Shown here piece by piece: positions 9,808 to 58,760 of a stretch of 64,000 nt of DNA. Source of the DNA: a virus (lineage: Duplodnaviria > Caudoviricetes). A model generated the notes under the pieces. That model was not told the DNA's origin. It was given only the letters and a program-made list of their open reading frames with translations, and did no database searches. Within the stretch, counting starts at the first letter, position 1, and every line of letters begins with the position of its first letter. Both the position numbers and the translations under genes were made by a program. The stretch covers positions 368 through 64,367 of the IMG/VR virus record IMGVR_UViG_3300018080_000180; one strand, 5' to 3'.

Positions 9808-10133
9808 TACTGCCCTCCCCTGCTCGCAAAGAAGATGATAACACCAATGACAATCTGGATCACGGTCAACCCAACACCGAGGGCAACGGCAGAAACCTTT
9901 ACCCCTGCCTTCATCTCGTTCTGGCCAATGGCGAGGTGGTTAATGTTGGTTGTCTGGGTGTCTACAGCGGCAAATATCTTGCCTATGCTTTCCTTGACTT
10001 CCACAACTCCCCCCTTGAGGTTTTCCAATTCTACGCTTTTTGCTGCATCGCATTTTCCAAACCTAAGAGCAAGGTCGTTAACCTTTGAACCGAGATTGTT
10101 TAAGTCAGACTCTGTTGCGAATTCGGCCATCAC
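9807..10133 (-). CDS. Holin-like membrane protein
   Basis: Coiled coil plus C-terminal TM helix. Confidence 0.55.
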   Translation of the reverse strand: MMAEFATESDLNNLGSKVNDLALRFGKCDAAKSVELENLKGGVVEVKESIGKIFAAVDTQTTNINHLAIGQNEMKAGVKVSAVALGVGLTVIQIVIGVIIFFASRGGQ

Positions 10134-19100: not shown

Positions 19101-22100
19101 TCAGCAATCACGTAGCTTGACACAGGATAACCCTTATAGGTCGTCATATCTGGGTCGTTCACCCTCAGTTCGGCGAGGTCCTCTGCCCCATAGTTCGCAA
19201 GACGTTCAAGCAAGTACTCGCGGTAACCCGCAGCATCCATTGCCTCAAACAGGGAGAAGAGGAGGTTGTTATAGTCTGACTTGGAATCGTGCTGGATCCG
19301 GTGCAGCCCTTCGTGCAGGAACGTGGTAAGGAGGGGGAGATCCCCCTCGGTGTTGAGCAGCACCACCCCGGGCATGTCCTCCGGGGCGTAGCCGTTGATA
19401 TCGAGGCCTCCACGCCCATCCTTGAACCACAGGATCGTGGTCCCCATGTCAGTCGCAAGAGCCTCAATAGCCTTCTGGTACGCTGTTTCTGACTTTGCGG
19501 GGACGGCGCCTGCCTGAGCGTATCTGCCGCCGAACTTGCGGAGGCCGGTGACTGCTTTATCAAGCAGCCTGACCTTCTTATCCTGATCTGTAACTACAGA
19601 AGGCGCCTTTTTTGGCGGAGCTTTCTCTTCTGTTAATCGTCGCTGTCCTGCTTCAGTGGCTTTTCCAGCTTCGCCATCTCTTTTCTGTACTGCAGGCCGT
19701 TGATCTCGCCGTTTCGATAGCGTTTTATCAGGTTGAACTCTTTTAGGGAATTCCCGCTCAGCCTCAGCTTGACTTTTTGCTGGTTCACGTTTTTCCTCCA
19801 GTTCTCGCGCCGACACAAGGCCGGCTTGTTCATAAATGGGTCCGAGGTCTTCTCCTTCAACCCCACTTATATTATACCGTTCCGCCAATTGATTGTCAAT
19901 GTAAATCGCATTGCGTCGTTTCGACTTGCCTTCCAGCATGGCTTGATCTGCACCAGCAAGATCGGCCCCGACCCCTATGGTTGCCCCGAGCGGAACCCGC
20001 ATAACGGTGCCGTTTTTAGCCGTTATCGGAACAGTTATCGAATTGAGTTTCTGTTGCATTTGCTGCAGCTTTGCGGGAAGTTCGGCCATCTCTTCGTCTG
20101 TCAGTTCAGCAATGCCGGCACCTTCATCGCCATGGATGTGGTAATAATTAATCCCGACCTCTTCTGCAGCCTCAGCAAGAGCCCTCTGCCCCTTCTTCAT
20201 GATGTAGTCGCCAGCATTATGGCCTTCAATGGTCTCGTCATTCCACGGCTTGAATTTATCAAGGTCATAAAAAATGTTTACACGAGTTTTGCCTTCTTCG
20301 ACAGGTTTCTGCATTGCGCTCTGAAAGTGGGGGCCGCTCTTGAGCTTGGTAAGCCCATGCCGTTTCGATCTTGATGCGTAGCGAAGTGCCTTGTCACGAG
20401 GGAGCTCTGGATCCTCCTCTTGAAGCTCATCTGCAACAGACTCCAGAGTTTCTGGCTGAACCTCTGCTCCGATGTCCTCCATTATCTTGACTCTGCCCTG
20501 AGCCTTCCCGGGCGTAATCGGAGGCGGCTCAAAACTCTTTGGGGCTATCTCAAAAATCTCCTCGTCGATAACTTCCAAAGACTCTATTCCGGACTCCGCT
20601 GTCGGAAGCTGCCCTTGCTTCTCCGTTGGCTGAACCGGCGCCTCAGTGGGCGCTCGCGGCTCCTCAGCGGCAGCTTCCGATGGCGTAGCGGGTTTGGACA
20701 GTGTAGGGGGCTTGCGGCCCTCCTCGGCCTCCTGAGCGGCCAGAGCCTCGATCTGGGCTACGGTCTCGGGATCGTCCGATACAACCTCCTCAATGGTCAG
20801 ATCTGGGCCTACAGGGGCAGCTGGCGCCTCTCCGGGTGCTGTGGGGGCCTCTCCGGGCGCTGTGGGGGCTACAGGGGTAGCTTCTTGCCTCAGACGCTCC
20901 TGCTCGGCCCTCTCGGTGGCTGCCTCGCGCTGAGCGGCCTCTATATCAATAGTCTGCGCTGCATCGCTCATTACGGCCTTCTGGGCACTCTCCTGAGCCT
21001 TGTCGAGCACCCCGAGTCCCTTCAGCGTCTTGTGGACGACCTTTACGCCGGCAGCTTTGGCCTGATCAGAGATCTTCTCGACGCCTGCCCGGACGCCAGC
21101 TCCGCCCATACCAAGCAGGAACATAGATGGGAAGGCTGTCGCGTAGGCGGCGGCTCCCTCAACCATGGCATTCTTCAGCTCTTCGAGAATCTTGATCTTC
21201 TTGCCCTCTGACATTTTGCCAAGGACCGGAGCGATCGTCCCGGTGAGCCACTCCTGAAACATCTCCTCACGGGCTTCGTGGTGGGCACCTTCTGCACGCT
21301 TGGCCAGACCTGCAATGGATCCTGATACAAACCGAGCGAACCGTCCGGTACCAATGCTTTTGCCCATAGCTGTCCGGATTGCGTTCAGGGTCTCCTTACT
21401 GAAGACACCCTTGTTCTGCATGTCCTCAACTTTGGCGTATCCAATACCAATCGGCAGCGCAAAAACTCGCTGCATATCCCTGCTGACACCAGCCTCCTCT
21501 AAGGCCCGAGCAGTGCTGCCTGCGCCTTCGAGTGTCCACATCAGGCCGCCGGCCCCGGGAACCACCATGTTCAGGGCGGTACCTGCCGCCATCCCGGGGA
21601 GGATCCGGATGGTAGACGAGATAATATTCTTGTACTGATCCTGATCTGTCGCCTCTGTAATCTCGTCGGTCAGAGCCATCGCCTCATCGTAGGCCTCATC
21701 ATCAAGAGAATAGAGCGCAAGGCCAGTGGAAATGCTGGCCGACAAGTCTGCAACCCCAGCCAGAAAAGAAGCAGTGGGGGTACTGAAAAACCCGGGCTTG
21801 ACATTTTGTAGGTAATCCACAAAGTCTTCGGCCTCTGCCTTGCGCAGCCATCCCGGAGACAGCTCCTCCATAACATCTTCGGCGTATTTGACGTAGTCCT
21901 TTGCCGCTTCCAGCTCCTGTTTCACCTGAGTGTCGCGTCCTGTTTCGCGGGCGATCGCTTCGCGTCCGGGCTCCAGCTCCTGAAGGGCTGCCTCCCGAGC
22001 CTTGAACGCACGATCCCAGCGACCTGCCGCAGCGGTCAATCCAGTGACATGCTTTGCAACCGTCTTGCCGACCTCACCAAGAAACCCTTCGCGCCCCTCG

Positions 22101-45510: not shown

Positions 45511-45795
45511 TTACACCCCTTGCGATGCGGTTAATAGACAATCGAATTCGAACTTCCTGTCAAACTTCACCGGCCCTTCCAGTGTTTCGAAAACCGACTG
45601 GCCGCCGGGAAGGAAATAGATCTGAATAAACTTGGTTATCGTAGGACAGGAGGGACAACGCAGTGTCATCTTTTTCCCGGGGTTGTTCTTCAGGGCCTCA
45701 ATACAGCAGTCCGGGATCCCTACGAGAAATCGGCTACAGGTGCCTTGGTCTCCACTACCTCTCAGTTTCTCGTTCTCGCACTCTATTCTTGGCAT
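45511..45795 (-). CDS. Cys-rich Zn-binding protein
   Basis: IEC...CSRFL...LRCPSC. Confidence 0.6.
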   Translation of the reverse strand: MPRIECENEKLRGSGDQGTCSRFLVGIPDCCIEALKNNPGKKMTLRCPSCPTITKFIQIYFLPGGQSVFETLEGPVKFDRKFEFDCLLTASQGV

Positions 45796-45799
45796 ACAT

Positions 45800-45834
45800 A
45801 AAAAAGCCCCGGCAGGGTTACCCCCGCCGAGACT
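45800..45834 (-). terminator. Intrinsic terminator in leader of head operon
   Basis: GTCTCGGCGGGG-GTAA-CCCTGCCGGGGC-TTTTTT. Confidence 0.75.
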
Positions 45835-45835
45835 T

Positions 45836-45911
45836 GGCGCAAAAGAGATGTGGAGCTGAGAACGAAAAATGGCGCATCAGGACGAAACCTTCCGGCTTCC
45901 CCTTTTGCGCC
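45836..45911 (-). ncRNA. Structured leader/sRNA
   Basis: 10-bp closing stem GGCGCAAAAG/CTTTTGCGCC, CU-rich interior. Confidence 0.45.
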
Positions 45912-45918
45912 TATAATC

Positions 45919-45947
45919 AGTATACGTATTTACTGGCCAAAAATCAA
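45919..45947 (-). promoter_or_regulatory. Promoter of head operon
   Basis: TTGATT-17-TATACT. Confidence 0.6.
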
Positions 45948-45966
45948 CCCAATTTTGCGAATTTAG

Positions 45967-46773
45967 CTAAAACGTGGTTTTTGACACTTCCTTGAGCTTC
46001 CGGTCCCACTTGGCTTTCCCCTCTGCATGGGCCTGCTCATAGACTGATTTCCGGCCAAAATCGGCCACACTCTTGAGGTGGACCATATCCGGGGAAATGG
46101 CCCCACTCCGGTAATATGACTGCATTTTATCGGGCTCGGGCTTGTTCCCCTTGACGTTGTACCGCTGGAACTTGTAGGCCCAGCCAATGTAGGTAGTGTC
46201 GAGCAGCGTGCCGGCCATGATCGGAACATTAACCTTGATCGCCCCATCGATCCCGGGCCACTCGACCATATTGAACAGAGACCTGTCGTCAACGATGTGC
46301 TCCGGAACCCCCTTGAACCAGTAGCCGCTCGGAGGGACGCCAACCTGCCCCGGCTGCATCTCCATCTTCTGGTCGTGGCAGTACCACCGCTTGCCGTTTG
46401 CAGGATACCAGAACGACAGGCAGATATGGGCAAACTTTTTCTGAGCACCGGAATAGTTGAACCCGCAGTACAGCATATTGCTTTTGTCAACATCGTTCAC
46501 GATGCCCTTGCTGAGCTTCATCCCCCAGCTGTCAAACGCTCTCACGATACGCTTCCAGTCTTCGCCATACCGCACGCAGATATCGAAATCGCCATCGGGA
46601 ATGATGCCATCATTTTTGACAATGCCAAACAGGCCTCCAAAAGATAGCCAGTATTGGACACCGGCAAACCCGAACACCTCGTTAATCATCTTGACGGTGC
46701 GCTCCAACATCGGACTCGGCTTTAGACAACCCATGTCATACCTCGCATTTCGTTTTCTTGAGAAGGTCGTCAA
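45967..46773 (-). CDS. LicD-family nucleotidyl/phospho-transferase
   Basis: YWLSFGGLFGIVKNDGIIPDGDFDI. Confidence 0.8.
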   Translation of the reverse strand: MTTFSRKRNARYDMGCLKPSPMLERTVKMINEVFGFAGVQYWLSFGGLFGIVKNDGIIPDGDFDICVRYGEDWKRIVRAFDSWGMKLSKGIVNDVDKSNMLYCGFNYSGAQKKFAHICLSFWYPANGKRWYCHDQKMEMQPGQVGVPPSGYWFKGVPEHIVDDRSLFNMVEWPGIDGAIKVNVPIMAGTLLDTTYIGWAYKFQRYNVKGNKPEPDKMQSYYRSGAISPDMVHLKSVADFGRKSVYEQAHAEGKAKWDRKLKEVSKTTF

Positions 46774-47446
46774 ACTCCTTCGTATTCAAAGGATCGATAC
46801 CGACGTACTCAAGGACAGTGTTAAAATAAAGTGGATCGCTTATCATCCTCTCGAACTTCGCCCTGAACACCCCAACATCTTTGTATTTCCGCGAGAGCTC
46901 CAGAGCCATTGGATACTCGTGAATGTACCTGACCCTCGGGGATGACATAGCAAAGAGGCGCCCGGAAGACGTGGACCAGCTGGCTCCCTTGCTCCACTTT
47001 CGGTGGATGCTGAGCACCCGGGCATTCGGGAAGATCTTGAGCCACTCGCCAAGGGTGATGCCGTTGCGTGGATCCTTCCAGCCCCACTGTCCCCCGATCG
47101 CCTCCCTTGCGGAGAACGTACACGCTGCCGCCGCTCTCATCTCAGCTGCATTGGAAAACCTTCCAAGGTCTCCACCGCTGCTCTTCATGATGCTGACGTA
47201 TTTATCCGCAAGCCTTGCCATGTTTCGGTGGGTAAGCTCGGTTCCCCACATTGCCTTCTGGATGCCAATGTTGATATCCTTCATGGCCTTTGATTCGTGC
47301 CACTTCCGGTCGTCCCTGTTGCCGGCGTCGAATCCAACGAACAGGCCGCAGAACCGCAACAGCTTCGTCGCATACGAAGTGCCACCACCGTGCATCCCGC
47401 AGATAATAATTGGGCTTGCTTTTTTGAAATTCATCATCACCCTCAT
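46736..47446 (-). CDS. Sulfotransferase family protein
   Basis: PIIICGMHGGGTS, WGWKDPR. Confidence 0.8.
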   Translation of the reverse strand: MRVMMNFKKASPIIICGMHGGGTSYATKLLRFCGLFVGFDAGNRDDRKWHESKAMKDINIGIQKAMWGTELTHRNMARLADKYVSIMKSSGGDLGRFSNAAEMRAAAACTFSAREAIGGQWGWKDPRNGITLGEWLKIFPNARVLSIHRKWSKGASWSTSSGRLFAMSSPRVRYIHEYPMALELSRKYKDVGVFRAKFERMISDPLYFNTVLEYVGIDPLNTKEFDDLLKKTKCEV

Positions 47447-48156
47447 TTGTGCCTGATTGTGTATCCGTTACCAGACTTGTCGTAAGCCTTGAACTTGCTG
47501 TGCAGCGGCTTCCCGGTGATGATCCGACCATCGAAAAGCTGCCACGCCCTGTAGTTAAGAACACCCATGTTTCCGTTGATGTGCGGTTTCACAGTACGCA
47601 GGTCGCTTACCATAACCTTCAACAGCCTGACCATGTCTGGGCGCCTCGCACCTATGATGCCGGCGTTAAGGGCCACACGATCATCGTAGTGCGTGTGGCC
47701 GTAGACCCTGCGCTGCTTCTTTCTGATGAATATTCCACGATCACCCTCCGATCCAACACACAGATACCCCGGCCTTATGAGCTTGAACGGGTCTCCGTAA
47801 AATTCAATGTCGAAAAGATCGCACAGGAAAATCTCCATCAAGCTCGGATTGCTCGTAATGTACTGAAGGAAGTGAATGTACCGCTGATCATTAAGAGACT
47901 GACCAGTCAGGTTCACCCGCTTAAATAATAGCCCACTGCCAGCACACCTGTTAATGAACTTGCTTGACAACTGGTCGTGGAATATGACAACAGGAAGCCT
48001 ATGCTTTGCTGCGGTCTCTACAAAGGTAGATATCAGCTGGTAGCTGTCTGGCGGAAATGTATGATCAGGCCTGTAATGCTTGCTTACGGGATCTCCGCCT
48101 CTGCGCGGCTGCGGATCCCTCGCGCCTGTGAAATACGTTGTCAGAATCGATCTCAT
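47443..48156 (-). CDS. GT-A fold glycosyltransferase-like protein
   Basis: FLCDLFDI...DPF, LNAGIIG. Confidence 0.65.
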   Translation of the reverse strand: MRSILTTYFTGARDPQPRRGGDPVSKHYRPDHTFPPDSYQLISTFVETAAKHRLPVVIFHDQLSSKFINRCAGSGLLFKRVNLTGQSLNDQRYIHFLQYITSNPSLMEIFLCDLFDIEFYGDPFKLIRPGYLCVGSEGDRGIFIRKKQRRVYGHTHYDDRVALNAGIIGARRPDMVRLLKVMVSDLRTVKPHINGNMGVLNYRAWQLFDGRIITGKPLHSKFKAYDKSGNGYTIRHK

Positions 48157-48883
48157 ATATCACCCTTCCGTTGTGCTTAACTCTCGTGTAGCCGCCCTTC
48201 CTCATCATCATGTCTATATAGCCAACACGCCTCGACAGCTGTTTATCGTAAAACTTACTGTTGGTATGACGATGCCCTATGAACGGAGTGTCCATCTGCG
48301 CAACACCAATACCAGCCTTCTTTGCCTTTGCAAAAAAGTCAAGGTGCTCTCCACCGCACTTCAGGTCGGCATCCCATCCACCCATCTTCCTGATCTTGGC
48401 AACGTCACCTACCCAGAAGTTGGGAATCATATCACAGTACGTAATGCCGCCGCCCTTGCGGTGGGCACCAGAGCGTCGATCGATCTCGGTCCCGTTGATC
48501 CGCAGGACTGTCGTATTCCAGTTGGTAGTCCTACCCTCTATCCTGCCGCCAAGAATATCGATATCATCGTGTCGCTCCAGAACATCAACCATCTCTCCAA
48601 ACGGGAACTGCCTGCGAAAGAAAAAATCATCGTCGAGCAGCATCATGTACTTCGACCTGACCACCTTAAGCATCATATTCCGCTTGGCCGACAGCCCAGA
48701 GTCAAACTTCATGTTGATCAGCCTGCCATTAGTAAGGTGCAGAACAGGCGGAAGTCGACCGTCATTGACCACGATGACAGGAATCGTCTTGGTTATCTCC
48801 CGAATAGACGCAACACAGCGAGCCAGAGCGTCGTTACGCTCGAATGCGGCTATACATATCGTAAGAGCTTCAGAGAGCCGCAT
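48065..48883 (-). CDS. GT2 glycosyltransferase (B4GALNT-like)
   Basis: AFER, VVNDG, FDSGLSAKRN, LLDDDF, CDMIPNF, WDADLK, EHLDFF. Confidence 0.85.
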   Translation of the reverse strand: MRLSEALTICIAAFERNDALARCVASIREITKTIPVIVVNDGRLPPVLHLTNGRLINMKFDSGLSAKRNMMLKVVRSKYMMLLDDDFFFRRQFPFGEMVDVLERHDDIDILGGRIEGRTTNWNTTVLRINGTEIDRRSGAHRKGGGITYCDMIPNFWVGDVAKIRKMGGWDADLKCGGEHLDFFAKAKKAGIGVAQMDTPFIGHRHTNSKFYDKQLSRRVGYIDMMMRKGGYTRVKHNGRVIYEIDSDNVFHRREGSAAAQRRRSRKQALQA

Positions 48884-49787
48884 GGATAGCCTTCCTTATT
48901 TCTGACATTCGGGCAATGTTGTCTGCGGCCGACCCGGTCTTACGCCCACCCTGTATTGTCCCCAGAGCATTAGCGTACACGGCATCGATGCCTTTTATCT
49001 TGTTGATCATGACGTAGTTATTCACACTGTTTGGCGTCAACCCGCTTGCACAAAACATGACAACCCTCAACGGGCGATTGGCAACCCTGAAAAGCACATT
49101 ATGCAGCGCCGAACCATGGCAGCCTATGATTACATCATGCTCGTTCACTGCTGCTATCTGCTGCTCTACGGTCTCCAGCTGGGGGTGCGATATCTTCGCA
49201 CCTATCGAGCACATGAACTCCTCGATCTGATCCTCACCATGGACCTTCCTCAGCCGGAGCGGCAGCTTACTCCTGCTGAGGTACAGGGGAGCCTTGCGCT
49301 TCCGGTACGGCCCCAGCTCCTTGGCTACACTCTCAAAGAATGCTGCATGGATGGGGTGACAGGACCGACGATTCTCGAACGATGGCAGCGCTATATGGGC
49401 CTTCTTGATGGTGGTCCTGCCTGTAGGTGCTTGAATCTTTGACAGGTGCTTCCGGGTCATTGGACTGATCTTCATGACGCGCAGGACGTTAGTCGAGATC
49501 CCCCGGCGTCCGATCACAAGACTCCTCGTTTCCCCGAAAGCCCATATCCTACTCGATCCCTCAGTGAGAAAATGGCCCCAGTGCGACAGGTCCATAGGAA
49601 TGAATACTGCATTGCTTACGTGGTTCGACAGACCTCTATACAAGCACGCCCGGGGAACCTTAATCTCACCATCTCCGCGAACGAACGTGGATTCCATGAT
49701 CAACCTGTCATTTGAGCTATAAAGGCGCGGAATCCCCTTACCCGGATAATAAACATCCCTTGCAGTGACGAAGCCCGGATTACCCAC
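48870..49787 (-). CDS. GT61 (DUF563) glycosyltransferase
   Basis: HWGHFLTE, LYLSR, QI....HDVIIGCHGSALHN; GTG start with GGAGG. Confidence 0.8.
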   Translation of the reverse strand: MGNPGFVTARDVYYPGKGIPRLYSSNDRLIMESTFVRGDGEIKVPRACLYRGLSNHVSNAVFIPMDLSHWGHFLTEGSSRIWAFGETRSLVIGRRGISTNVLRVMKISPMTRKHLSKIQAPTGRTTIKKAHIALPSFENRRSCHPIHAAFFESVAKELGPYRKRKAPLYLSRSKLPLRLRKVHGEDQIEEFMCSIGAKISHPQLETVEQQIAAVNEHDVIIGCHGSALHNVLFRVANRPLRVVMFCASGLTPNSVNNYVMINKIKGIDAVYANALGTIQGGRKTGSAADNIARMSEIRKAIHAAL

Positions 49788-50526
49788 GGAGTTGCCTCCG
49801 AATGAACCGGGAAACGGTGTCCACCTGATAGGGGATCTCGTGGTACTCTTCCCCAGCTTCTGCAACCATCCTCTTGAAGACTGGATGCTCCGATACGTGG
49901 TTCCATTGCCGATAGAACTCGGGCTTTATCATTGCTGACAGCCTCTTGAATATCACGGCGTCGCCCTTGTCCTTGCGTTTGCGGATCTCGCCGAGGTGGA
50001 TCCCGTGGTGGCGCACCTGCCCGGGAGAGTAGTTCCTGCTGACCTTCAGGCCGGACTCTTCGACCACGCTACGAATTGCCATCTCGTCGTCGTAGTGTCC
50101 GTGACCTATCTCGCCGGCAGCCAGCTTGTGCATGTACTTGCGCCGTGCATTGAGCGTCTTGGCGTACCACTGGGCATTGACAAAGTTGAGGCCACGCAGG
50201 CGCTTGTGGTGATCCCTGCATCGACCCATGATCGCGTTGCTGTAAGGAAGCCCGGACTGTTTCATCTCCCTGAGGTGGAACGACAGCAGGTCCACCGACT
50301 CCTCCATGACCATGATATCGATATCGGTGATCCACACATAGTCGTAGTTCCCGGTGACCGTTGCGAGGTGGCGGTACGATGCGGCAGCATACTTCGGCAT
50401 TCCATCGGGAGGAAGCATTATCTCTATCGTGTAGTTCGGATATGCTCGCTGAGCACAATACTTGAAAAGCGGAATGTATGCCTTGTACACTCCGCTCGCC
50501 GATGTAAGAATAGCTACCTTGGGCAC
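49780..50526 (-). CDS. GT-A fold glycosyltransferase-like protein
   Basis: YDYVWITDIDI DxD motif, YDDE; start uncertain. Confidence 0.65.
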   Translation of the reverse strand: MPKVAILTSASGVYKAYIPLFKYCAQRAYPNYTIEIMLPPDGMPKYAAASYRHLATVTGNYDYVWITDIDIMVMEESVDLLSFHLREMKQSGLPYSNAIMGRCRDHHKRLRGLNFVNAQWYAKTLNARRKYMHKLAAGEIGHGHYDDEMAIRSVVEESGLKVSRNYSPGQVRHHGIHLGEIRKRKDKGDAVIFKRLSAMIKPEFYRQWNHVSEHPVFKRMVAEAGEEYHEIPYQVDTVSRFIRRQLRG

Positions 50527-50533
50527 GGATCTT

Positions 50534-50698
50534 TTAAGCGCGAGATTTACGTCTCGCAGGCTTCCGCATTCCGCCCTTCTCGACACCCTTGATCGTCCCC
50601 TTGTTCTTTGAAGCGTAGAAGACTCTCTCGCCTTTCTTCGGGCCGTATTCCTTCTTCATGGACCCCATGATCTTCTTTCCCTTTTTGGTCATCGGCAT
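50534..50698 (-). CDS. Small basic conserved phage protein (54 aa) overlapping the sulfotransferase 3' end
   Basis: MPMTKKGKKIMGSMKKEYGPKKGERVFYASKNKGTIKGVE; GAGGAG SD. Confidence 0.75.
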   Translation of the reverse strand: MPMTKKGKKIMGSMKKEYGPKKGERVFYASKNKGTIKGVEKGGMRKPARRKSRA

Positions 50699-51800: not shown

Positions 51801-52443
51801 TCGCTCCCTTCAGATCAGAAAACATCTTCTGCAGAAACCCGGGATCCTTCTGCTCGATGTCATCAAGGTCGAGCTTCAGCCCGTGGTTCTGCCAGAGTAT
51901 CGCACCCTTCTTCTCGATGAAGCCGCAGCCAAGCAGCAGCGCACGCCCCTCAGGGGAGCTCTGCTTCCAGCTGGAGACGATATACCGCACGTTGCCGTTG
52001 AATAAGGTCTTGGCAACATTCACCAGCTTCTTCATGCGGCCCTCTTTGCGATTCTTCGGGCGGGTCCACATATTGTGGATCTCCAGCACACAGTACGGCT
52101 TGATCGTCTTCGGCCGAACGAATACGGCGTTAAGGAACAGGGAGGCAACGATCGTCCCGTTGATGTAGTCGGTAATGTACAGTGGATCGCCCTGATGCGG
52201 CTCGATGAAGATGCCATTCTGGCTGGCGAGGGCCTTCTGGGTACTGGCCTGAATGAGCGGACACTTGTCTGGAAACCCGCCCTTGCTGTTGGCTTTCGTG
52301 ATGATGTCCTCGCCACCGTCGTCTGCCTTGGGGTGGCCACACACCAGCTTGTCGCTTGGCATCTCTGTGTAGTGCTCACATTTGCGACACTCGGTAATGA
52401 GCTTGTCGCCGTCGACTACCTTTACTTTGCCATGTACTCCCAT
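51778..52443 (-). CDS. Cys-rich domain + GNAT-like acetyltransferase
   Basis: CRKCEH..CGHP..CPL; EIHNMWTRPKNRKEGRM...GF. Confidence 0.55.
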   Translation of the reverse strand: MGVHGKVKVVDGDKLITECRKCEHYTEMPSDKLVCGHPKADDGGEDIITKANSKGGFPDKCPLIQASTQKALASQNGIFIEPHQGDPLYITDYINGTIVASLFLNAVFVRPKTIKPYCVLEIHNMWTRPKNRKEGRMKKLVNVAKTLFNGNVRYIVSSWKQSSPEGRALLLGCGFIEKKGAILWQNHGLKLDLDDIEQKDPGFLQKMFSDLKGAIEREVKG

Positions 52444-54464
52444 TCGCTCCTCCTCGGTGCTACGTTCATGCGGCCGCCGCGCATCTTCTCGCGCACCTTG
52501 ACCTTCCTCTGTGAATATGGTGGCAGCGGGGTCGGTGAGTCAAATTCACCAGCACCCCGGAGCTCGTTAACAACTATCGCAAGGGCTATACAGTGGGGGT
52601 AGCCGTCAGCCGGTATACGCCCATCATACTCCCAGCCACGATACTGCAGGTCAGTAGCTATGCAGTCGGTATGGACCACGACCCGATTCTCCACAAAGAG
52701 CTCACGGGCAAACATGATCGCCGCATTGATGTCGTACTGCTTGGCCTCGCGGATCCTCATTCTGCGCTTCCGCATCAGCTTTATGGTATTCTCCCCCTTG
52801 CTGAACATCTCGCTGTTTCCGAGGATCTTGGTTGTTTTGCTGAATCCCTTGCCAGCAGCAGCCCTAATCTGCCCTATGATTATCTCAGGCACCGGCCGAT
52901 CACTTCCAAACTCAGAAACGACAAACAGCTTCCGGCTGCGCTTCCCCCAGAAGAACCAGTTCCCATGGATCCCGGTGTCCTTCTGCTGAATGACCACACT
53001 GTAGAAGTTGAACATATCCGGCTCGACCTCAGTCCAGTCCAGATCGAAGTCCTTGAACAGCTCACCACTATACTGTGGCCAAACCGACTTCTGGCCAACG
53101 AGGAGCTTGTACGCCCCAGACACAGCGTCTATCTGGTCACGCTTGTTGAGCGGGAATGATCCAGCCTCAGCAAGAAACGCCCTGTTCCATTTACCCCTGA
53201 CAATGTATACGTGCCCCTGCTCTGCCTTGGCAGCCCATGTCTTTGCCCTGTCGATCTTACTTCCAGTCGGCCTGTCAGCGTGGAATTCGTACCCATGCAA
53301 GAGGGCTCTGTAATGATCCACAGACTCGATGCCGGCAGACCCGGGCTCCTGCTCTATACCTATCGGGGTATCATGACCGTCCATGGCAGCGTTCTGCTTG
53401 ACCTTGGCCTCAGTCTTTGCCGGCGTAAGTCTAAACCGCTCCATGTGGCGTATGTAGAGATCAGGACCATCGAGGCCGCACTTGGCCCCGGCCGTGTAGT
53501 CCGGGTCGTCGTCTTCCTTCTCGGGCTCAGTCCCAGCCTTGTCCCAGTACCTGATCCAGCGAATGCCGCCCGGAACCTCATTCTCCTCGATGATCTTGAA
53601 CCACAGAGGGTTGAGCATGCCGCCCTTGTAGCTGATATTCCAGTTACCGTTGAGAAGCCGCTCGCGGTCCACGGCAGCCATGGCCATGAGTGTCGACTTG
53701 TAAAAGGGGTCAGCTATCTTACCGAGCGGATTGTCGTCGATGGTTGATGGAATAAACGTAAGGCTCTTTGGTCCATTCCCTTCGCTGTCCTTCCAACTCT
53801 CTTCTACCCATACAATCTCATCATTTATCCGGGTAAAATACCGAAGAACCCCAGATCGCTCCTGTATGGGCAACCCGGTCTCGTCATCTATCCACCAATC
53901 AATAAGATCCCGAACCCACGAGTCTGCGTCGGGGTTTGTCGTGGCACGCATGTATGGCTTCGCGCCCTTGAACCCTGCCGGCGGACGATTGCGTGACATG
54001 AGATAAAAGAACTGACCTTCGGTGAAGTGGGTAAGCTCATCAAAGCCAATAAACACGTACTGTGCGCCCTGATGATCGAGCTTCGTTTTTTCGTGCTGCA
54101 TGTGGCTGAACTTTATAAAGCTGTCTGCCGGGAACTCCCACTTGAGAAAGTGACCAATAGGGGTGGCGCCGAGCTTCGAGTAGATCTGCGAGGACGTATC
54201 CCATAGACCGCCACCAGACGTGATCTGGGGTGAAGTGCGACGAAAGATAATGCCATTGTAGTTTGGAAGATGAGAATATCTGGCAGCATCAAGCAGGAGC
54301 CCGTAGCTCTTCCCGCCATAGGCAGCCCCACCATAGATAACTATGTCAGCGGGAGACGCAAGAAACTCTGACTGTGGCCCGGGCTGTGGCGACAGTACGT
54401 CAACCCCGCGCTTGGCCGCCTCTACGGCAGCCTCAGTCATCGATGCATCAAGGGGGGTTGGCAT
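52422..54464 (-). CDS. terL: Terminase large subunit with C-terminal extension
   Basis: PQPGPQ, YGGAAYGGKS, FDELTHF, ATTNP, RYWDKAGT, IEQEPGSAG, DQIDA. Confidence 0.95.
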   Translation of the reverse strand: MPTPLDASMTEAAVEAAKRGVDVLSPQPGPQSEFLASPADIVIYGGAAYGGKSYGLLLDAARYSHLPNYNGIIFRRTSPQITSGGGLWDTSSQIYSKLGATPIGHFLKWEFPADSFIKFSHMQHEKTKLDHQGAQYVFIGFDELTHFTEGQFFYLMSRNRPPAGFKGAKPYMRATTNPDADSWVRDLIDWWIDDETGLPIQERSGVLRYFTRINDEIVWVEESWKDSEGNGPKSLTFIPSTIDDNPLGKIADPFYKSTLMAMAAVDRERLLNGNWNISYKGGMLNPLWFKIIEENEVPGGIRWIRYWDKAGTEPEKEDDDPDYTAGAKCGLDGPDLYIRHMERFRLTPAKTEAKVKQNAAMDGHDTPIGIEQEPGSAGIESVDHYRALLHGYEFHADRPTGSKIDRAKTWAAKAEQGHVYIVRGKWNRAFLAEAGSFPLNKRDQIDAVSGAYKLLVGQKSVWPQYSGELFKDFDLDWTEVEPDMFNFYSVVIQQKDTGIHGNWFFWGKRSRKLFVVSEFGSDRPVPEIIIGQIRAAAGKGFSKTTKILGNSEMFSKGENTIKLMRKRRMRIREAKQYDINAAIMFARELFVENRVVVHTDCIATDLQYRGWEYDGRIPADGYPHCIALAIVVNELRGAGEFDSPTPLPPYSQRKVKVREKMRGGRMNVAPRRSEWEYMAK

Positions 54465-54471
54465 CCGAACT

Positions 54472-54663
54472 CTACCTGTTCCTCACGATGTCTTCTGAGA
54501 TGCTCCTCAGCTCATCAGCCTTGCGCTGAAAAGCAGACTCACCATAGGATAAGCTGTGTCCCTGCATGGACCGAGAAGCATTCTCTGCCCTCATCCCATC
54601 TACCTCAACCATTATGGCCGACGCCTCTATTTTGCGTGCGTATAACCAACCGATATCCGCCAT
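54472..54663 (-). CDS. Hypothetical protein (63 aa)
   Basis: EVDGMRAENASR..G.SLSYGE small phage family motif. Confidence 0.65.
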   Translation of the reverse strand: MADIGWLYARKIEASAIMVEVDGMRAENASRSMQGHSLSYGESAFQRKADELRSISEDIVRNR

Positions 54664-54666
54664 GAG

Positions 54667-54837
54667 CTACCCCCTCGCTATATCAAGAGCCGTGTTCATC
54701 CAGCGCTCTACGTCTTCTGTGTGCTGCTTCCTCATCGACTTGATCATACGATTCTGCATGATGATCACATCGATCAATTCCTGCCGGCTCATTTCCGTTT
54801 CCGGCTTGCCCATCCATGTGAACTGGGGGTGTTCCAT
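54667..54837 (-). CDS. Hypothetical protein (56 aa, MEHPQFTW)
   Basis: AGGAG SD. Confidence 0.5.
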   Translation of the reverse strand: MEHPQFTWMGKPETEMSRQELIDVIIMQNRMIKSMRKQHTEDVERWMNTALDIARG

Positions 54838-55018
54838 TTTCAAGACTCCTGATGATGGTTTCGATATCTTCGAGCACGGGGAAGCCCCGCGCCACACAAT
54901 TCTGAACAGTCCGCAGGAGGGACGCCAGCACCTGATGCATGGCTGTTACATCACTCACCAAGTAGTACGCCCCCTGCGGACGCTCTCTCATTTTGCATGT
55001 GTTCTGAAAACGCCTCAC
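54683..55018 (-). CDS. Hypothetical protein
   Basis: GTGA coupling to the Tad1-like gene; 3' part overlaps next gene. Confidence 0.35.
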   Translation of the reverse strand: MRRFQNTCKMRERPQGAYYLVSDVTAMHQVLASLLRTVQNCVARGFPVLEDIETIIRSLENGTPPVHMDGQAGNGNEPAGIDRCDHHAESYDQVDEEAAHRRRRALDEHGS

Positions 55019-55335
55019 GTCTCGTGAGTGCCCTCCACGTCGCGCTCTTCGCGATCCTTGGTCCGGTTGTTGAGATACTCCATAGCAAGCTCAAGGTGAT
55101 GAAGAGCCTCAGCGTTGTCCTGACACCTGAACCGCGACTCCTGATAATACCGGATCCTGTCAGCTGCCGCATCGATGATATCCTCAACGAATGCGCCGTT
55201 TGGCTCCTTGCGCCCCTCACCACGACCGAGCGGACCATTCTGCCAGCCGATAGCAAAGCCACGACCAAACGTGGTGCCGCCGGCAGGGTTGCCATTGGCA
55301 TCATCAAAGTGCATGCTGCTGATACCCATTCTCAT
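55015..55335 (-). CDS. tad1: Tad1-like anti-defence nucleotide sponge
   Basis: WQNGP...NGAFVEDII..AADRI.YYQ..RF.CQDN..AL..LE.A...L..RT.DR..RDVEGT. Confidence 0.75.
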   Translation of the reverse strand: MRMGISSMHFDDANGNPAGGTTFGRGFAIGWQNGPLGRGEGRKEPNGAFVEDIIDAAADRIRYYQESRFRCQDNAEALHHLELAMEYLNNRTKDREERDVEGTHET

Positions 55336-55643
55336 CTCTTCCTCCTATGATATTCGATCAGCTTCGTGCCGACCGAGGTTGTACATTTGACCGTGTGCGG
55401 CTCGTTGATCGGAGTGGTCAGGCCGTGCTGCTCGGTGACCCGCGGGCTGCAGCCAGTAAGCCAGAAGACAATCACACCGGCGACAATCAGTATCACATAT
55501 CCAGTGATCGTGGCCACCCAGAACCTGCGCTTCTGCTCCAACTGGTAACAGCGTCGGCAATCAATGCGTATCGATACGTTCGGGCCAACATCCGTGACCT
55601 TCCCGTGCTCACCGTTGCAATCCGGGCAGACGTCACCCCTCAT
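55332..55643 (-). CDS. Zn-finger + membrane protein
   Basis: CPDC...CRRC, TM helix ending LTGC. Confidence 0.55.
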   Translation of the reverse strand: MRGDVCPDCNGEHGKVTDVGPNVSIRIDCRRCYQLEQKRRFWVATITGYVILIVAGVIVFWLTGCSPRVTEQHGLTTPINEPHTVKCTTSVGTKLIEYHRRKR

Positions 55644-55741
55644 GATTTCCTCCCGGTGCCTTTGCAGTCCTCTGGAGTATCCGACTCATTTTCGGCGCAG
55701 TGACGGTTGACAGCACTTTCTATTTCTGATAGCAACGACAT
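55640..55741 (-). pseudogene. Truncated/chimeric small ORF at start of last cassette
   Basis: AGGAGG SD; MSLLSEIESAVNRHCAENESDTP then switches to CKGTG. Confidence 0.45.
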
Positions 55742-55777
55742 AGCAAACCTCCTATAAATTCAAAGAGAAAACATTTC

Positions 55778-55860
55778 TTACAACGTCTGATAAATGGTGA
55801 AGTTGCAAAGCAATTTGGCGAAGCCCGGAACGAAGTGGAGCACCATTTATTTGTTGGGCG
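55778..55860 (-). repeat. attC-like site C
   Basis: CGCCCAAC-aa-ATAAATGGTG...CACCATTTAT-cagac-GTTGTAA. Confidence 0.7.
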
Positions 55861-55907
55861 CTGTAAACCGGTGACTCCATATTTCGTTCCGGGCTCACCA
55901 CGGGTTG

Positions 55908-56087
55908 TTACCGACTAACCCGCGTATTATCGGCAGGTGCAGAGCGGTCGAGCTTTTTCAAATTCGGCTTTGCTCGTGGCACCATTTTGTACTCAGGGAA
56001 CTCCTTTGCGATAATTTTCTTTGCCTCGGATACCGTAACATCTTTAAACCTGTCCACTTTTCGCGGAATAGAATTGCGAATAGGCAT
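55908..56087 (-). CDS. Cassette C ORF (59 aa, MPIRNSIPRK)
   Basis: AAGGAGG SD; below ORF-track cutoff. Confidence 0.6.
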   Translation of the reverse strand: MPIRNSIPRKVDRFKDVTVSEAKKIIAKEFPEYKMVPRAKPNLKKLDRSAPADNTRVSR

Positions 56088-56151
56088 ATAGCCTCCTTGT
56101 TAAGAAAATGTAGTGGTGAGCCCCTATAATAAAGACTCACCGGTTTATTGC

Positions 56152-56217
56152 GCCCAACGTCCCGGCCCACTCGCCCGAAGTGCGGTACTCCGCATTTTGG
56201 GCTGGGCCTGTTGTACG
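56152..56217 (-). repeat. attC-like site B
   Basis: CGTACAAC-a-GGCCCA GCCC..TGCGG agta CCGCA..GGGC gag TGGGCC-gggac-GTTGGGC. Confidence 0.75.
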
Positions 56218-56238
56218 AAGTTTTGCCGGATCCCATAT

Positions 56239-56499
56239 TTATTCTTCCGGTGCAAACTCAGCAACATCTACGTCCAGGCATTTAATATTATCACGCGAAT
56301 CTTCGAGACAAATTAGCGTTACCATACAATCACGAAGCGCATTCATTTCATCGCGAATATCACCGACACACAAAGGATCGCCGTGCTCGCGTGAATCGCT
56401 AATGGTTGAATCGCCGTGAATGCGTCCGTTGAGTTCAGCACAAAGCTTATTAAATGCCGTAACGCCCTTCATGCGAAAACTGTCAAAGTCAATTTGCAT
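56239..56499 (-). CDS. Cassette B ORF (86 aa)
   Basis: Fills cassette between GTT 56558 and attC B. Confidence 0.65.
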   Translation of the reverse strand: MQIDFDSFRMKGVTAFNKLCAELNGRIHGDSTISDSREHGDPLCVGDIRDEMNALRDCMVTLICLEDSRDNIKCLDVDVAEFAPEE

Positions 56500-56551
56500 A
56501 GATACCCTTTATTTTGCGCCGGACTACAATAAAGCTCTCCGGCAAAATTTC

Positions 56552-56731
56552 TTACAACGGTTCGCGCTACAGATGCCGTAGCACGATATTTTGCCAATCG
56601 GCACGGATATGGTCAAGCGTTATGTCGCTGATCTGCTCCCACTCTTGTTTGAGGCCACGCCGATCAGAAATGTCTTTTTCAAGTGCCGCTACAATTTTAA
56701 GTGCTATGGCAATCTTAGCGCTGTTGTCGGC
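56552..56731 (-). repeat. Long attC-like site A (overlaps coding sequence)
   Basis: GCCGACAAC-a-GCGCTAAGATTGCCATAGCAC...GTGCTACGGCATCTGTAGCGC-gaacc-GTTGTAA. Confidence 0.6.
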
Positions 56732-56932
56732 TCGTTGCTCGACATTAGATCGCTGAGGTTTGTCATGCACGAATTGCCGATTGCACACATACACATCAAA
56801 CGATGGAATGTAGACTGCGCGGCGTTCTCCGCATGCTCTCACCTCTTCCGCTGTGGACAAAAACCCACCGAGCCTGACCACCACGTTCTTTTCGTTTTGC
56901 AAGAGAGAACGCGCTTCGTTTTGTTCCTGCAT
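56567..56932 (-). CDS. Cassette A ORF (121 aa, MQEQNEARS)
   Basis: GGAGG SD; C-terminal DISDRRGLKQEWEQI motif. Confidence 0.6.
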   Translation of the reverse strand: MQEQNEARSLLQNEKNVVVRLGGFLSTAEEVRACGERRAVYIPSFDVYVCNRQFVHDKPQRSNVEQRADNSAKIAIALKIVAALEKDISDRRGLKQEWEQISDITLDHIRADWQNIVLRHL

Positions 56933-57100
56933 GACAAACCTCCAATAATTCAACTGGCAATGGCCGACAACTCGTTCTATGCGGTCATTAATGGGGGTAG
57001 GATGCGGCATAGTGGTCGATGGTTCATCGTGTCTGGAGCTACCATAATTCCCACTATTAACGATATACTTTCCATCGTATCGTTGCACACACCACTACCC

Positions 57101-57607
57101 CTATTCTGTCCCCCTCTGATTATCCGGCAGGATCAGCAGTGGCCTCTGGATGTCCTTGCCGCCCGAGGTGATGTCCTTCTTGATCGGAGCATAGTTGCCG
57201 ACCATCTTGTTGAGCTCCTGTATGTAGCTAAGCTGGATCCTGCGATCATTGTACATGCGCTTGACCATATCGATCACCTTTTCGTCCATGACCCCTTCGG
57301 CACTATCAGCCTCCTGAAACAGCTTGACCACGCGCTCGGTGAGCTGCTGCCCATGCTCAATACCCTCAACGATCCTCTGCACGAGCTTGGCCTTCGGCAT
57401 GCCGGCCTTCACGAACATCTTCTCGGTGTCGCCCATGATCTTTTCTTCGATCTGGTCTGCGAGCCTGCCCTTCTTCCACTTCTTGTTGGCGACACGTTTA
57501 TGTATCGTCACCGCTGAAATTTTATACTTCTTTGATATATCTGCTACAGACGTGCCCATCTCGTAGGCAGCCTTGCACTTGGCCCAAAGTACCGCAGAAT
57601 AAGCCAC
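57101..57607 (-). CDS. terS: Terminase small subunit
   Basis: N-terminal HTH; C-terminal ELNKMVGNYAPIKKDITSGGKDI..LILPDN. Confidence 0.7.
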   Translation of the reverse strand: MAYSAVLWAKCKAAYEMGTSVADISKKYKISAVTIHKRVANKKWKKGRLADQIEEKIMGDTEKMFVKAGMPKAKLVQRIVEGIEHGQQLTERVVKLFQEADSAEGVMDEKVIDMVKRMYNDRRIQLSYIQELNKMVGNYAPIKKDITSGGKDIQRPLLILPDNQRGTE

Positions 57608-57898
57608 TTACAGTGCCTCCGGACCCGGGTCAGGTTCGAACTCTGGGGCATGAAACATACCCTCGACTTCTCTGCCGCCTTCCTGCTCCAGCTCCTTGAG
57701 CAGTATAGCCATGGTGGCGCCTATTGCATGGTGGAGATACCGCATGCCGTTGTCTCCAGCTGAGGCTACCACCTGTGGAGCTATGCCCTGCCTTGCGTAC
57801 ATGGGGATACCCGGAGCGTCAGGCCCTGAGGTAGATATCTCGATGACATACGGAGCCCCGGGCTCATCGACCCTGCTGAGATCAACGGTGAGCTTCAT
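57608..57898 (-). CDS. Hypothetical protein (96 aa)
   Basis: Coupled ORF. Confidence 0.6.
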   Translation of the reverse strand: MKLTVDLSRVDEPGAPYVIEISTSGPDAPGIPMYARQGIAPQVVASAGDNGMRYLHHAIGATMAILLKELEQEGGREVEGMFHAPEFEPDPGPEAL

Positions 57899-58119
57899 AC
57901 GTCCCTCATTCCCAGATACTTGAATACCCGCTGGCCCTCGGCGCCGTCATGGTCAACACCGTAAACGTGGACCCGTGGCTTGACTTCGGTATCGTCCTGA
58001 ACCTTTGACGGCACGGGCAGCGGCTCGGCAATGTAGATCTGGTATTTACCCATCTCAGCCATGATCCTCAGGCCGTCGAACTTGCCCCCGGACAGCTCAA
58101 CCTTCATCTCTTCTACCAT
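57895..58119 (-). CDS. Hypothetical protein (74 aa)
   Basis: ELSGGKFDG...HVY small phage family motif. Confidence 0.6.
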   Translation of the reverse strand: MVEEMKVELSGGKFDGLRIMAEMGKYQIYIAEPLPVPSKVQDDTEVKPRVHVYGVDHDGAEGQRVFKYLGMRDV

Positions 58120-58760
58120 GACGGCCTCCCGGTTTTCGAGGATCTCCCCCGGCTCATGTTGGCCTTCTCAATGACCAGCACGCGACCGTATAAGGTCATC
58201 GAATATGCCGTTCTGGTGAAATAGCCCTTCTCGCCGGCCCACCACCCGTTCATTCTATCGATCAAGGTCTTTGCATACTCGATCATTGTCCCGGGCCTCC
58301 TTAGGCCACCGCCGTACCGTGGCAGGTAGCTGGTCTGAAGATCCTCCACAAGGTAGATGCCGCCGATCTTGACCGATCGATACATGCCCTCGAACGTGGC
58401 GATCTGCTGCTCCATCCTGTGGCCGCCGTCATCGATCAGGATATCGATAGGTCCGACAACACCGCAAACCTTCTTCAGGAAGGCCGGGTCAGCCTGATCT
58501 CCGATGAGCACCTTGATCCCGGGTTCGGCAGCCACCTTGCACTTCGGGTTCTTGTCGACGCCGAATATCCGCGCCCCCGGGCCGAAGTATGACTTCCACA
58601 TCTGCAGGGATCCACCATGGCTCACGCCGAACTCGATCACGGTCGGCTTCTTGTTCCGGAACTTTTTGAAGTGCCGGTGATAGATGGCGAAGTAGTCCAG
58701 CCATTTATGGATCAGCCGACCCTTGTTGTGGCGAAAGTATTCGCTGAGCGGGTTACTCAT
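58113..58760 (-). CDS. Class I SAM-dependent (sugar O-)methyltransferase
   Basis: IHKWLDY, VIEFGVSHGGSLQMW, IGDQAD, IDDGGH, YLVEDL. Confidence 0.88.
   Translation of the reverse strand: MSNPLSEYFRHNKGRLIHKWLDYFAIYHRHFKKFRNKKPTVIEFGVSHGGSLQMWKSYFGPGARIFGVDKNPKCKVAAEPGIKVLIGDQADPAFLKKVCGVVGPIDILIDDGGHRMEQQIATFEGMYRSVKIGGIYLVEDLQTSYLPRYGGGLRRPGTMIEYAKTLIDRMNGWWAGEKGYFTRTAYSMTLYGRVLVIEKANMSRGRSSKTGRPSW

Follow-up and report, generated by a model that had tools for sequence, protein, structure and literature searches.

The window analysed here is a stretch of 64,000 nucleotides from a tailed virus (Caudoviricetes; IMG/VR record IMGVR_UViG_3300018080_000180, positions 368 to 64,367). It covers nearly all of a 64,367-bp record with direct terminal repeats that is rated 100% complete. 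Almost all genes of this phage are located on the minus strand, and so is an island of small open reading frames (ORFs; 55640-57100) situated between the gene of a DNA-binding protein and that of the large terminase subunit (TerL). The first-pass annotation had described this island as an array of gene cassettes that resemble those of integrons, with interlocking GTT and AAC cores. All island coordinates refer to the minus-strand reading, and the features are as follows.

57101..57607, minus: backbone gene 5' of the island, encoding a 168-aa helix-turn-helix (HTH) DNA-binding protein (PHROGs transcriptional regulator/DNA-binding, E 2e-5)
56972..57100, minus: structured non-coding leader before the first cassette start, with an 11-nt inverted repeat (57105-57095 x 57000-56990)
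56723..56971, minus: mini-cassette A, 249 nt; GTT at 56971, own-end box ending in AAC at 56723, complementarity 9/9 (56971-56963 x 56731-56723)
56567..56932, minus: ORF1, 121 aa, no match in Pfam or PHROGs
56541..56595, minus: hairpin over the ORF1 stop codon, 20-nt arms (80%), directly before and overlapping the start of cassette B
56210..56558, minus: cassette B, 349 nt; 21-nt ends 56558-56538 x 56230-56210 (90%), conserved box 56534-56524
56499-56239, minus: ORF2, 86 aa, inside cassette B
56159..56209, minus: junction B/C; single A, hairpin with arms at 56208-56199 and 56176-56164, 5-nt spacer at 56163-56159
55853..56158, minus: cassette C, 306 nt; ends 56158-56128 x 55883-55853 (31 nt, 84%), conserved box 56134-56124
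56087-55908, minus: ORF3, 59 aa, inside cassette C
55785..55852, minus: junction C/D; AA, long-looped hairpin whose 10-bp arms (55850-55841 and 55799-55790) pair perfectly, 5-nt spacer at 55789-55785
55640..55784, minus: last cassette-type start; GTT at 55784, TTATAGG box 55757-55751, ribosome-binding site (RBS), and ORF4 (55741-55640, 33 aa)
52422-54464, minus: TerL, large terminase (Pfam match to Terminase_6N/6C)

The four junction GTTs proposed earlier (G at 56971, 56558, 56158, and 55784) are all present, as are three AAC boxes complementary to the starts of their own units (56731-56723, 9/9; 56217-56210, 7/8; 55860-55853, 8/8). The complementarity of the ends is much longer than the 8-9 nt originally noted, extending over 21 nt in cassette B and 31 nt in cassette C, whose inverted repeat is the longest in the window. 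A scan of the entire window for inverted repeats with arms at most 700 nt apart yielded 42 pairs in total; the repeats around ORF3 and ORF2 rank 1 and 3, and two further pairs from the island, which makes up 1.9% of the window, rank 9 (a 19-nt repeat in ORF1) and 18. The match of a cassette start to its own end amounts to 19/24 in cassette B (rank 0 against 63 other starts) and 21/24 in cassette C (rank 0 of 65), which also contains a nested 11-nt repeat (56123-56113 x 55901-55891). Within the window, the 12-nt start motif and the 11-nt box are confined to the island; the heptamer TTATAGG occurs four times vs. 2.8 times expected, and none of these motifs is a signal used throughout the phage. 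The island is indeed richer in AT than its surroundings (GC content 0.45-0.50 over 55550-57050 vs. 0.54-0.58 in the flanks), as had been noted, and has no match in Rfam apart from mir-290 at E 0.23.

The prediction that each AAC opens a hairpin that closes 5 nt before the next GTT holds for the sites downstream of cassette B (56208-56164, with a 3-nt bulge at 56172-56170) and cassette C (55850-55790) but not for site A. The 165-nt hairpin postulated there (56723-56563) is unsupported: only the degenerate remnant of a hairpin lies downstream of the AAC at 56723, and the hairpin that precedes 56558 is a separate structure (56595-56541). When folded as single-stranded DNA (ssDNA) and compared with 200 dinucleotide shuffles, this separate hairpin reaches -14.2 kcal/mol on the sense strand (z -3.8; 1/200 shuffles as good). 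The expectation that the hairpins fold better than shuffled controls was borne out on both strands of site B, whose core reaches -17.2 kcal/mol in sense (z -2.9; 0/200 shuffles as good) and -20.3 kcal/mol in antisense orientation (z -4.3; 1/200).

Mini-cassette A carries the RBS and the ATG (56932) of ORF1, and its start type is present also in one of the related loci described below (L038). Residues 76-121 of ORF1 (46 residues) are 50% identical to a free-standing 64-aa ORF of viral contig L012 (3935-4129), and this match begins just past the AAC box of the mini-cassette. ORF1 is probably composed of parts of two fused cassettes, its frame leaving cassette A and continuing into the remnant of another. 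The 19-nt inverted repeat (95%; 56942-56924 x 56773-56755) spans the RBS and the start codon of ORF1 and may represent a translational or structural element; its arms are exactly 150 nt apart, and the aligned antisense frame is open. An intragenic inversion of 56774-56923 was considered and found no read support.

The last cassette-type start (GTT at 55784) is identical to that of cassette B in its first 12 nt; a matching end (reverse-complement partner with at most two mismatches) was not found, and the unit reads into backbone genes up to TerL (54464-52422). At the opposite border of the island, no RBS-bearing ORF was found in the leader (56972-57100). The adjacent HTH protein (57101-57607) matches also the terminase small subunit (TerS) of PHROGs (E 0.005-0.007) and has no match in Pfam; its assignment as a small terminase is weak.

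Related arrays in other phages

A search of metagenome contigs for the two-arm pattern of the hairpin that follows cassette B (hairpin B) yielded 22 loci, 20 of which have the same stem and the full architecture; in IMG/VR, the pattern produced only chance matches (5 loci). The start motif retrieved 60 loci from IMG/VR, 32 of which contain at least one cassette, with up to 10 cassettes in series. A strict detector recognized 137 cassettes of 148-2415 nt (median 278 nt) in the window and 83 related loci, and none in 20 unrelated control loci or in the remainder of the window. The architecture of junction C/D recurs in two of the related loci (L034 and L021) with compensated stems. All cassettes within an array share one orientation. 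The arrays reside in phages with lambda-like, HK97-like, P22-like, and T4-like (Gp23) backbones, and at least three of the array-bearing genomes are complete and of virulent type (64, 168, and 213 kb). The publicly available assembly of run X1, the probable source, is interrupted at 56194-56223, which is inside the repeated hairpin, indicating that the hairpin is present in multiple copies in that sample; four other short contigs of X1 match 56146-56222 and differ chiefly in the inner loop. Two further runs (X2 and X3) contain merely short fragments of the window, and no RNA run that contains it is listed.

Throughout the family, a cassette consists of GTT, a 21-nt cassette-specific end, a TTATAGG-like box, an RBS, usually one small ORF, the complementary end, and AAC. 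The AAC is followed by an A, a hairpin, and a spacer of approximately 5 nt that ends in C. The interlock between start and end is specific to the individual cassette: of 70 candidate cassettes, 20 agree with their own end in at least 18 of 24 positions, and each of these 20 takes the first rank when compared with approximately 65 other starts. A direct search yielded 39 unique strict cassettes, all of which begin with GTT and end with AAC. These independent cassettes display the integron-cassette logic claimed for the island, namely a start that is complementary to its own end and a hairpin between adjacent cassettes. In their end stems, positions 1-4 and 12-21 are nearly always Watson-Crick pairs even though the letters vary by cassette, position 11 is an A.C mismatch in 38/39, and position 10 is mismatched in 22.

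A TTATAGG-like box is present at approximately +29 in 79 of 127 cassettes, and the ORF starts most often 50-59 nt after the GTT. The cassettes of the family appear to be self-expressed. In cassettes longer than 200 nt (n = 96), the ORF coverage of the sense strand exceeds that of the antisense strand in 77 cases and falls below it in 18. Cassettes of 200 nt or less, which occur in related loci such as L021, L022, L025, L033, and L048, may be non-coding or micro-ORF mini-cassettes.

The segments between neighboring cassettes (81 unique, measured from AAC to GTT) are 41-127 nt long, with an A after the AAC and a C before the GTT in 80/81 each. Their hairpins are conserved in structure: among 23 unique stems, three to four pair types occur at each of the first ten positions, i.e., the pairs are compensated. 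Pair types were tabulated by script and not from a MAFFT alignment, because the alignment of 18 junctions mixes two stem registers. A bulge of 1-3 nt is present in 17/26 junctions and always located on the 3' arm of the sense strand, which is the arm of the joining GTT. The unusual spacers already remarked upon in the first-pass annotation (1-2 nt and 5 nt) were confirmed and measure 1-2 nt on one side and 4-6 nt on the other across the family. When folded as ssDNA, the 81 segments have a median z of -4.2 in sense and -5.0 in antisense orientation, and 90-91% fall below -2. The antisense strand is the more stable one in 59 vs. 19 of the 81 segments (median difference -1.2 kcal/mol), as it is at site B, in line with the earlier observation that A.C mismatches become G.T pairs on the other strand.

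Several sister arrays (L034, L037, L058, L078, and L023) contain, or are located beside, genes for Dam, C5, and N6/N4 DNA methyltransferases and for MT-A70. Further cargo in or beside these arrays comprises the restriction-alleviation protein Lar, the Thoeris inhibitor Tad4, an FRG domain protein, and a GNAT acetyltransferase.

Cassettes are gained, lost, and exchanged between near-identical phages

Comparison of related contigs shows that whole cassettes have been gained, lost, replaced, and reordered between near-identical phages. This is the outcome on which the first-pass annotation had staked its reading. Since no close relatives of the window phage were found in the collections searched, the comparisons were made among sister arrays and not in the TerS-TerL interval of true relatives. 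Six events were identified between contigs that are 96-100% identical in their shared parts; their breakpoints coincide with the C/GTT boundary or lie a few bases away from it. They include insertions of 1.07 kb (L029 vs. L037) and 1.16 kb (L037 vs. L025), cassette replacements (L025 vs. L033), and an altered cassette order (L025 vs. L037). The joints fall within C-G-T-T(G), and hairpin and spacer remain with the upstream ORF.

The same boundary emerges from a comparison of 128 junction contexts: where the left side is shared, divergence sets in at +4 to +6 in 6/9 pairs, and where the right side is shared, at -3 to -1 in 7/13. Among the junction pairs with near-identical hairpins (n = 8), the upstream flank is shared in three, the downstream flank in none, and neither flank in five. 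The cassette of ORF2 has a homolog in a different phage context (L025; protein 63%, E 1.6e-34; DNA 67%). The homology starts exactly at the C/GTT boundary; the upstream sequences are unrelated, and the downstream hairpin has a different stem.

The window phage itself has no DNA match in 50,697 phage records, and its TerL relatives in IMG/VR reach an identity of 44% at most. A sequence search of IMG/VR found no relatives of the HTH/TerS-like protein or of ORF2. The phage encodes a P22-like portal, an SNF2 helicase, and, in a single ORF (10130-22927, minus), a protein of 4265 aa with a match to the PBECR5 nuclease family and weaker matches to GGDEF and DUF7178, which is probably a giant polyvalent virion protein or injected protein. 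A gene cluster at 45967-50586 (minus) comprises LicD-like, sulfotransferase, GT2, and GT61 glycosyltransferase genes. At 45795-45950 (minus) lies a region in which a sigma-70-like promoter (hexamers 17 nt apart) is followed directly by TTATAGG, approximately 100 nt free of ORFs, and a G+C hairpin with a T-run; this region may represent a small RNA gene.

Proposed mechanism and alternative explanations

Our preferred explanation (probability roughly 0.55) is that the island consists of a few mobile gene cassettes in series, which belong to a widespread type carried by phages and obey the logic of integron cassettes. The course of events that we infer is putative with regard to circle excision, folding, strand usage, and enzyme. 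A cassette would leave the array as a circle, in which its two ends meet around the hairpin and form one long imperfect stem-loop. In the modelled circle form, sites B and C reach -31 to -36 kcal/mol (z -6.7 to -9.0 against 100 mononucleotide shuffles each), as compared with -12 to -24 kcal/mol in the array form. The folded site would then recombine with a junction in another array at the AAC/GTT core, probably via the antisense strand, and recombination at the core would insert the cassette in series.

The enzyme would not be encoded by the phage; candidates are a tyrosine recombinase of the host (IntI or Xer type) or an unrecognised phage function. As the first-pass annotation had remarked, the phage has no visible tyrosine recombinase: neither PF00589 nor PF00239 matches anywhere in the full record of 64,367 bp, and the 48 ORFs scanned include no recombinase of any kind. 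Neither PF00589 nor PF00239 nor PF01797 has a match in three array-bearing records that are 100% complete; according to these profile searches, tyrosine recombinases, serine recombinases, and IS200-type transposases are absent from the three genomes. Recombinase matches among the flanking ORFs of related loci amount to 0/85 and 1/97, and a tyrosine recombinase was detected in one of 11 records, where it is Xer-like and scores below every curated cut-off, including that of the integron integrase. This 280-aa protein (L050, 11160-12002, minus), whose gene ends 43 nt upstream of a cassette start, is the only recombinase found beside an array. A gene of the IS200 type is a single case in one incomplete record.

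A more specific version of this explanation is put forward tentatively, namely that the arrays constitute a phage-specific system of cassette exchange, an "integron without an integrase". The 21-bp interlocking stem and the bulged hairpin would define self-expressed mini-genes, and a universal host enzyme such as XerCD or an unrecognised phage protein would cleave folded ssDNA at the AAC/GTT core and rejoin it there. By way of such a system, anti-defence genes and other accessory genes would pass between virulent phages that are unrelated to one another and share hosts in sediment and water, ranging from podovirus-like phages of 64 kb to jumbo phages of more than 200 kb. That virulent phages can carry attC clusters has been published before (Qi et al. 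2023, PMC9892861). A description of the interlocking architecture was not found in the literature searched, and some of the 17 attC clusters lacking an integrase (CALINs) of Qi et al. may belong to the same family; the CALIN sites of phage TJE1, which were inspected, do not share its architecture.

Several observations weigh against mobile cassettes with integron-like recombination. Hairpin B was not found in 185,579 species genomes, which gave only three chance matches and therefore no demonstrated link to a bacterial integron. Not all breakpoints coincide with the boundary: one of the six events is imprecise by up to 6 nt, the joint of event 5 is located at the border of hairpin and spacer, another joint falls inside a hairpin loop, and 3/9 left-shared junction pairs diverge already at -5 to -2. 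Moreover, the crossover cannot be placed exactly, because C-G-T-T-G is conserved at every junction and any process that swaps cassettes would break there. The core of site C in its array form folds no better than shuffled sequences (z -1.0, 29/200, and z -1.3, 22/200), so that the expectation confirmed at site B failed at site C. A substantial fraction of the cassettes (30/126) is not longer than 200 nt and shows no preference for ORFs on the sense strand. Joints indicative of circles, deletions, or inversions were not seen in the island among assembled contigs, which drop rare forms.

The geometry of the sites also departs from that of canonical attC sites. The outer paired region measures 21 bp with a fixed A.C mismatch instead of 7 bp, and the spacers comprise 1-2 nt on one side and 4-6 nt on the other, whereas the central spacer of attC is described as unpaired on both arms. 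The bulge is located on the arm opposite to that which carries the extrahelical bases of canonical attC, and because of this one defining feature, membership in attC proper is not established.

The strongest alternative, which we nevertheless regard as unlikely, assigns the junctions a regulatory function similar to that of the stem-loop plus promoter modules (promoter-early stem-loops, PeSLs) of T4-type phages. The hairpin would be an RNA element (terminator, processing signal, or stability signal) and GTT...TTATAGG a promoter; the shuffling would be due to the phages' general or single-strand-annealing recombination (Erf, Sak4, RecT plus exonuclease), for which the conserved junction would serve as substrate. 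The 21-nt ends would act at the RNA level, e.g., as a stem of the size cut by RNase III in read-through transcripts; 21 bp correspond to about two helical turns, as in substrates of RNase III. The arrangement of the junctions, where the hairpin directly precedes the conserved box, the RBS, and the ORF with the positional preferences reported above, is compatible with such a function. In favor of this view, genes for ERF, SSB, and a PDDEXK nuclease are present in the window phage, and genes for YqaJ, Gp157, AAA_24, RusA, or endonuclease I in other array loci. Identical hairpins between unrelated cassettes (5/8 pairs) and breakpoints inside the junction point in the same direction, and recombination and mini-circles are on record for PeSLs of T4-type phages (PMC2839356, PMC4122927).

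By contrast, the two junctions that recombined in events 1, 2, 3, and 6 have unlike hairpins and only C-G-T-T(G) in common, which leaves no homology for annealing. A consensus scan of 54000-58500 detected no sigma-70 promoter or intrinsic terminator at any junction, and the hairpins lack a T-run; the one terminator-like site on the gene strand of the island is located inside cassette C (56141-56115), and the counts of such sites are not above those in shuffled sequences. If TTATAGG were a -10 box or a start site, the 5' end of the cassette would fall upstream of the transcript. A role at the RNA level is also difficult to reconcile with the near-invariant A.C at position 11 and the prevalence of A.C over G.T on the sense strand of the end stems (78 vs. 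17), which cause the sense RNA to pair worse.

It is considerably less probable that the cassettes are miniature inverted-repeat transposons, i.e., non-autonomous elements that insert beside hairpin targets with a transposase supplied in trans. Terminal inverted repeats of 21 nt with GTT at the start and AAC at the end in 39/39 strict cassettes, and elements of 148-2415 nt across many unrelated phage backbones, would be expected of such transposons. A target-site duplication, however, is absent, and the flanks at the junctions are C (80/81) and A (80/81). Apart from a few conserved positions, the repeat is cassette-specific (positions 5-7 and 12-21), so that one transposase could not read the repeats by their sequence. 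Furthermore, the hairpin moves with the upstream cassette, and no transposase was found in the three complete genomes, the sole IS200-type gene being that of the incomplete record.

Least probable are invertible segments (phase-variable invertons), in which an invertase would flip each ORF between inverted repeats that serve as crossover sites: the segments of 150-400 nt between inverted repeats of 19-31 nt and the 150 nt between the inner arms of cassette A (a multiple of three, with an open antisense frame) fit this notion, but strand-changing joints are absent from the assembled contigs, no invertase gene was found in the record of the window phage, each array maintains one orientation throughout, and the start and end arms retain distinct motifs in 38/39 cassettes, which repeated inversion would scramble.

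If the cassettes are mobile units, they would provide a sequence-defined mechanism for the fine-grained mosaicism of the accessory regions of phages, by which single small genes (methyltransferases, Lar, a Thoeris inhibitor) move among unrelated virulent phages that have no integrase. The boundaries of the units are predictable from sequence alone; such regions can therefore be parsed and their cargo catalogued. If a host enzyme acts on the junctions, structure-specific recombination sites would extend beyond attC and the attP of the CTX type, and DNA engineering would gain new parts. Should the exchange proceed without a site-specific enzyme, the invariant interlock would call for another explanation, which is likewise of interest.

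Comparison with integrons, PeSLs, and Xer sites

The cassettes share many properties with those of integrons. Each unit contains one ORF, all units have a single orientation, and each ORF is followed by an imperfect palindrome that travels with it. The AAC...GTT core is invariant, the start of the cassette is complementary to its own 3' box, and the boundary of the unit is located at the GTT. Structure is conserved but sequence is not, the antisense strand folds better owing to G.T pairs, and the size range is similar. Recombination of attC sites takes place between AA and C on the bottom strand, according to Nivina et al. (2016, PMC5027507), who describe a 7-nt R box, a central spacer that remains unpaired, and extrahelical bases on the arm that faces the cut AAC. 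The bottom strand of these sites has more G:T mispairs than the top strand and a lower folding energy, which is lower by 1.28 kcal/mol even without mispairs (PMC5027507). The R-box consensus given there (RYYYAAC / GTTRRRY) is fitted in the window by the sites at 56158 and 55859-55853 but not by those at 56971, 56558, and 55784. Family-wide, the four bases after the GTT vary freely apart from a purine in the first position, which was imposed by the search pattern for the start motif.

Other differences concern expression and genetic context. The cassettes of the phage arrays carry their own conserved upstream box and RBS, whereas integron cassettes depend on a common promoter, and both intI and attI appear to be absent. 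Qi et al. (2023, PMC9892861) report 17 attC clusters from 10,705 phage genomes screened and activity of IntI1 on 5/6 tested sites from virulent phages. DNA methyltransferases are part of the cargo described for phage CALINs, as they are in the sister arrays of the window.

Among virulent phages, the PeSLs are the closest functional analog in the literature cited. In T4-type phages, these stem-loop plus promoter modules flank small ORFs, recombine, and give rise to mini-circles (Arbiol et al. 2010, PMC2839356; Comeau et al. 2014, PMC4122927). Both systems feature composite modules of hairpin and upstream box between small accessory ORFs in variable regions, and in both, close relatives differ by insertion, deletion, or replacement of ORFs at the modules, with circles proposed as intermediates, in virulent phages that lack a site-specific recombinase. 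However, PeSLs as described rely on homology between like modules and possess sigma-70 promoters and true terminators, whereas the cassettes analysed here have interlocking 21-nt ends that are specific to the individual cassette. Unlike PeSLs, their recombined junctions often share just 4-5 bases, and their hairpins have no T-run.

A third group of comparable elements depends on Xer recombinases. Filamentous phages of the CTX type possess folded single-strand attachment sites that are used by the XerCD of the host, and Acinetobacter plasmids carry Xer-dependent dif modules bracketed by inverted sites. In such systems, a host enzyme acts in trans on the site of a mobile element, and a hairpin unites two half-sites. 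Unlike the dif-type arms of Xer sites, the core of the phage cassettes is AAC/GTT. The sole lead toward a Xer enzyme is the Xer-like gene beside a cassette in L050. The central region of Xer sites comprises approximately 6 nt, and the two unpaired spacers of the phage cassettes also sum to approximately 6 nt.

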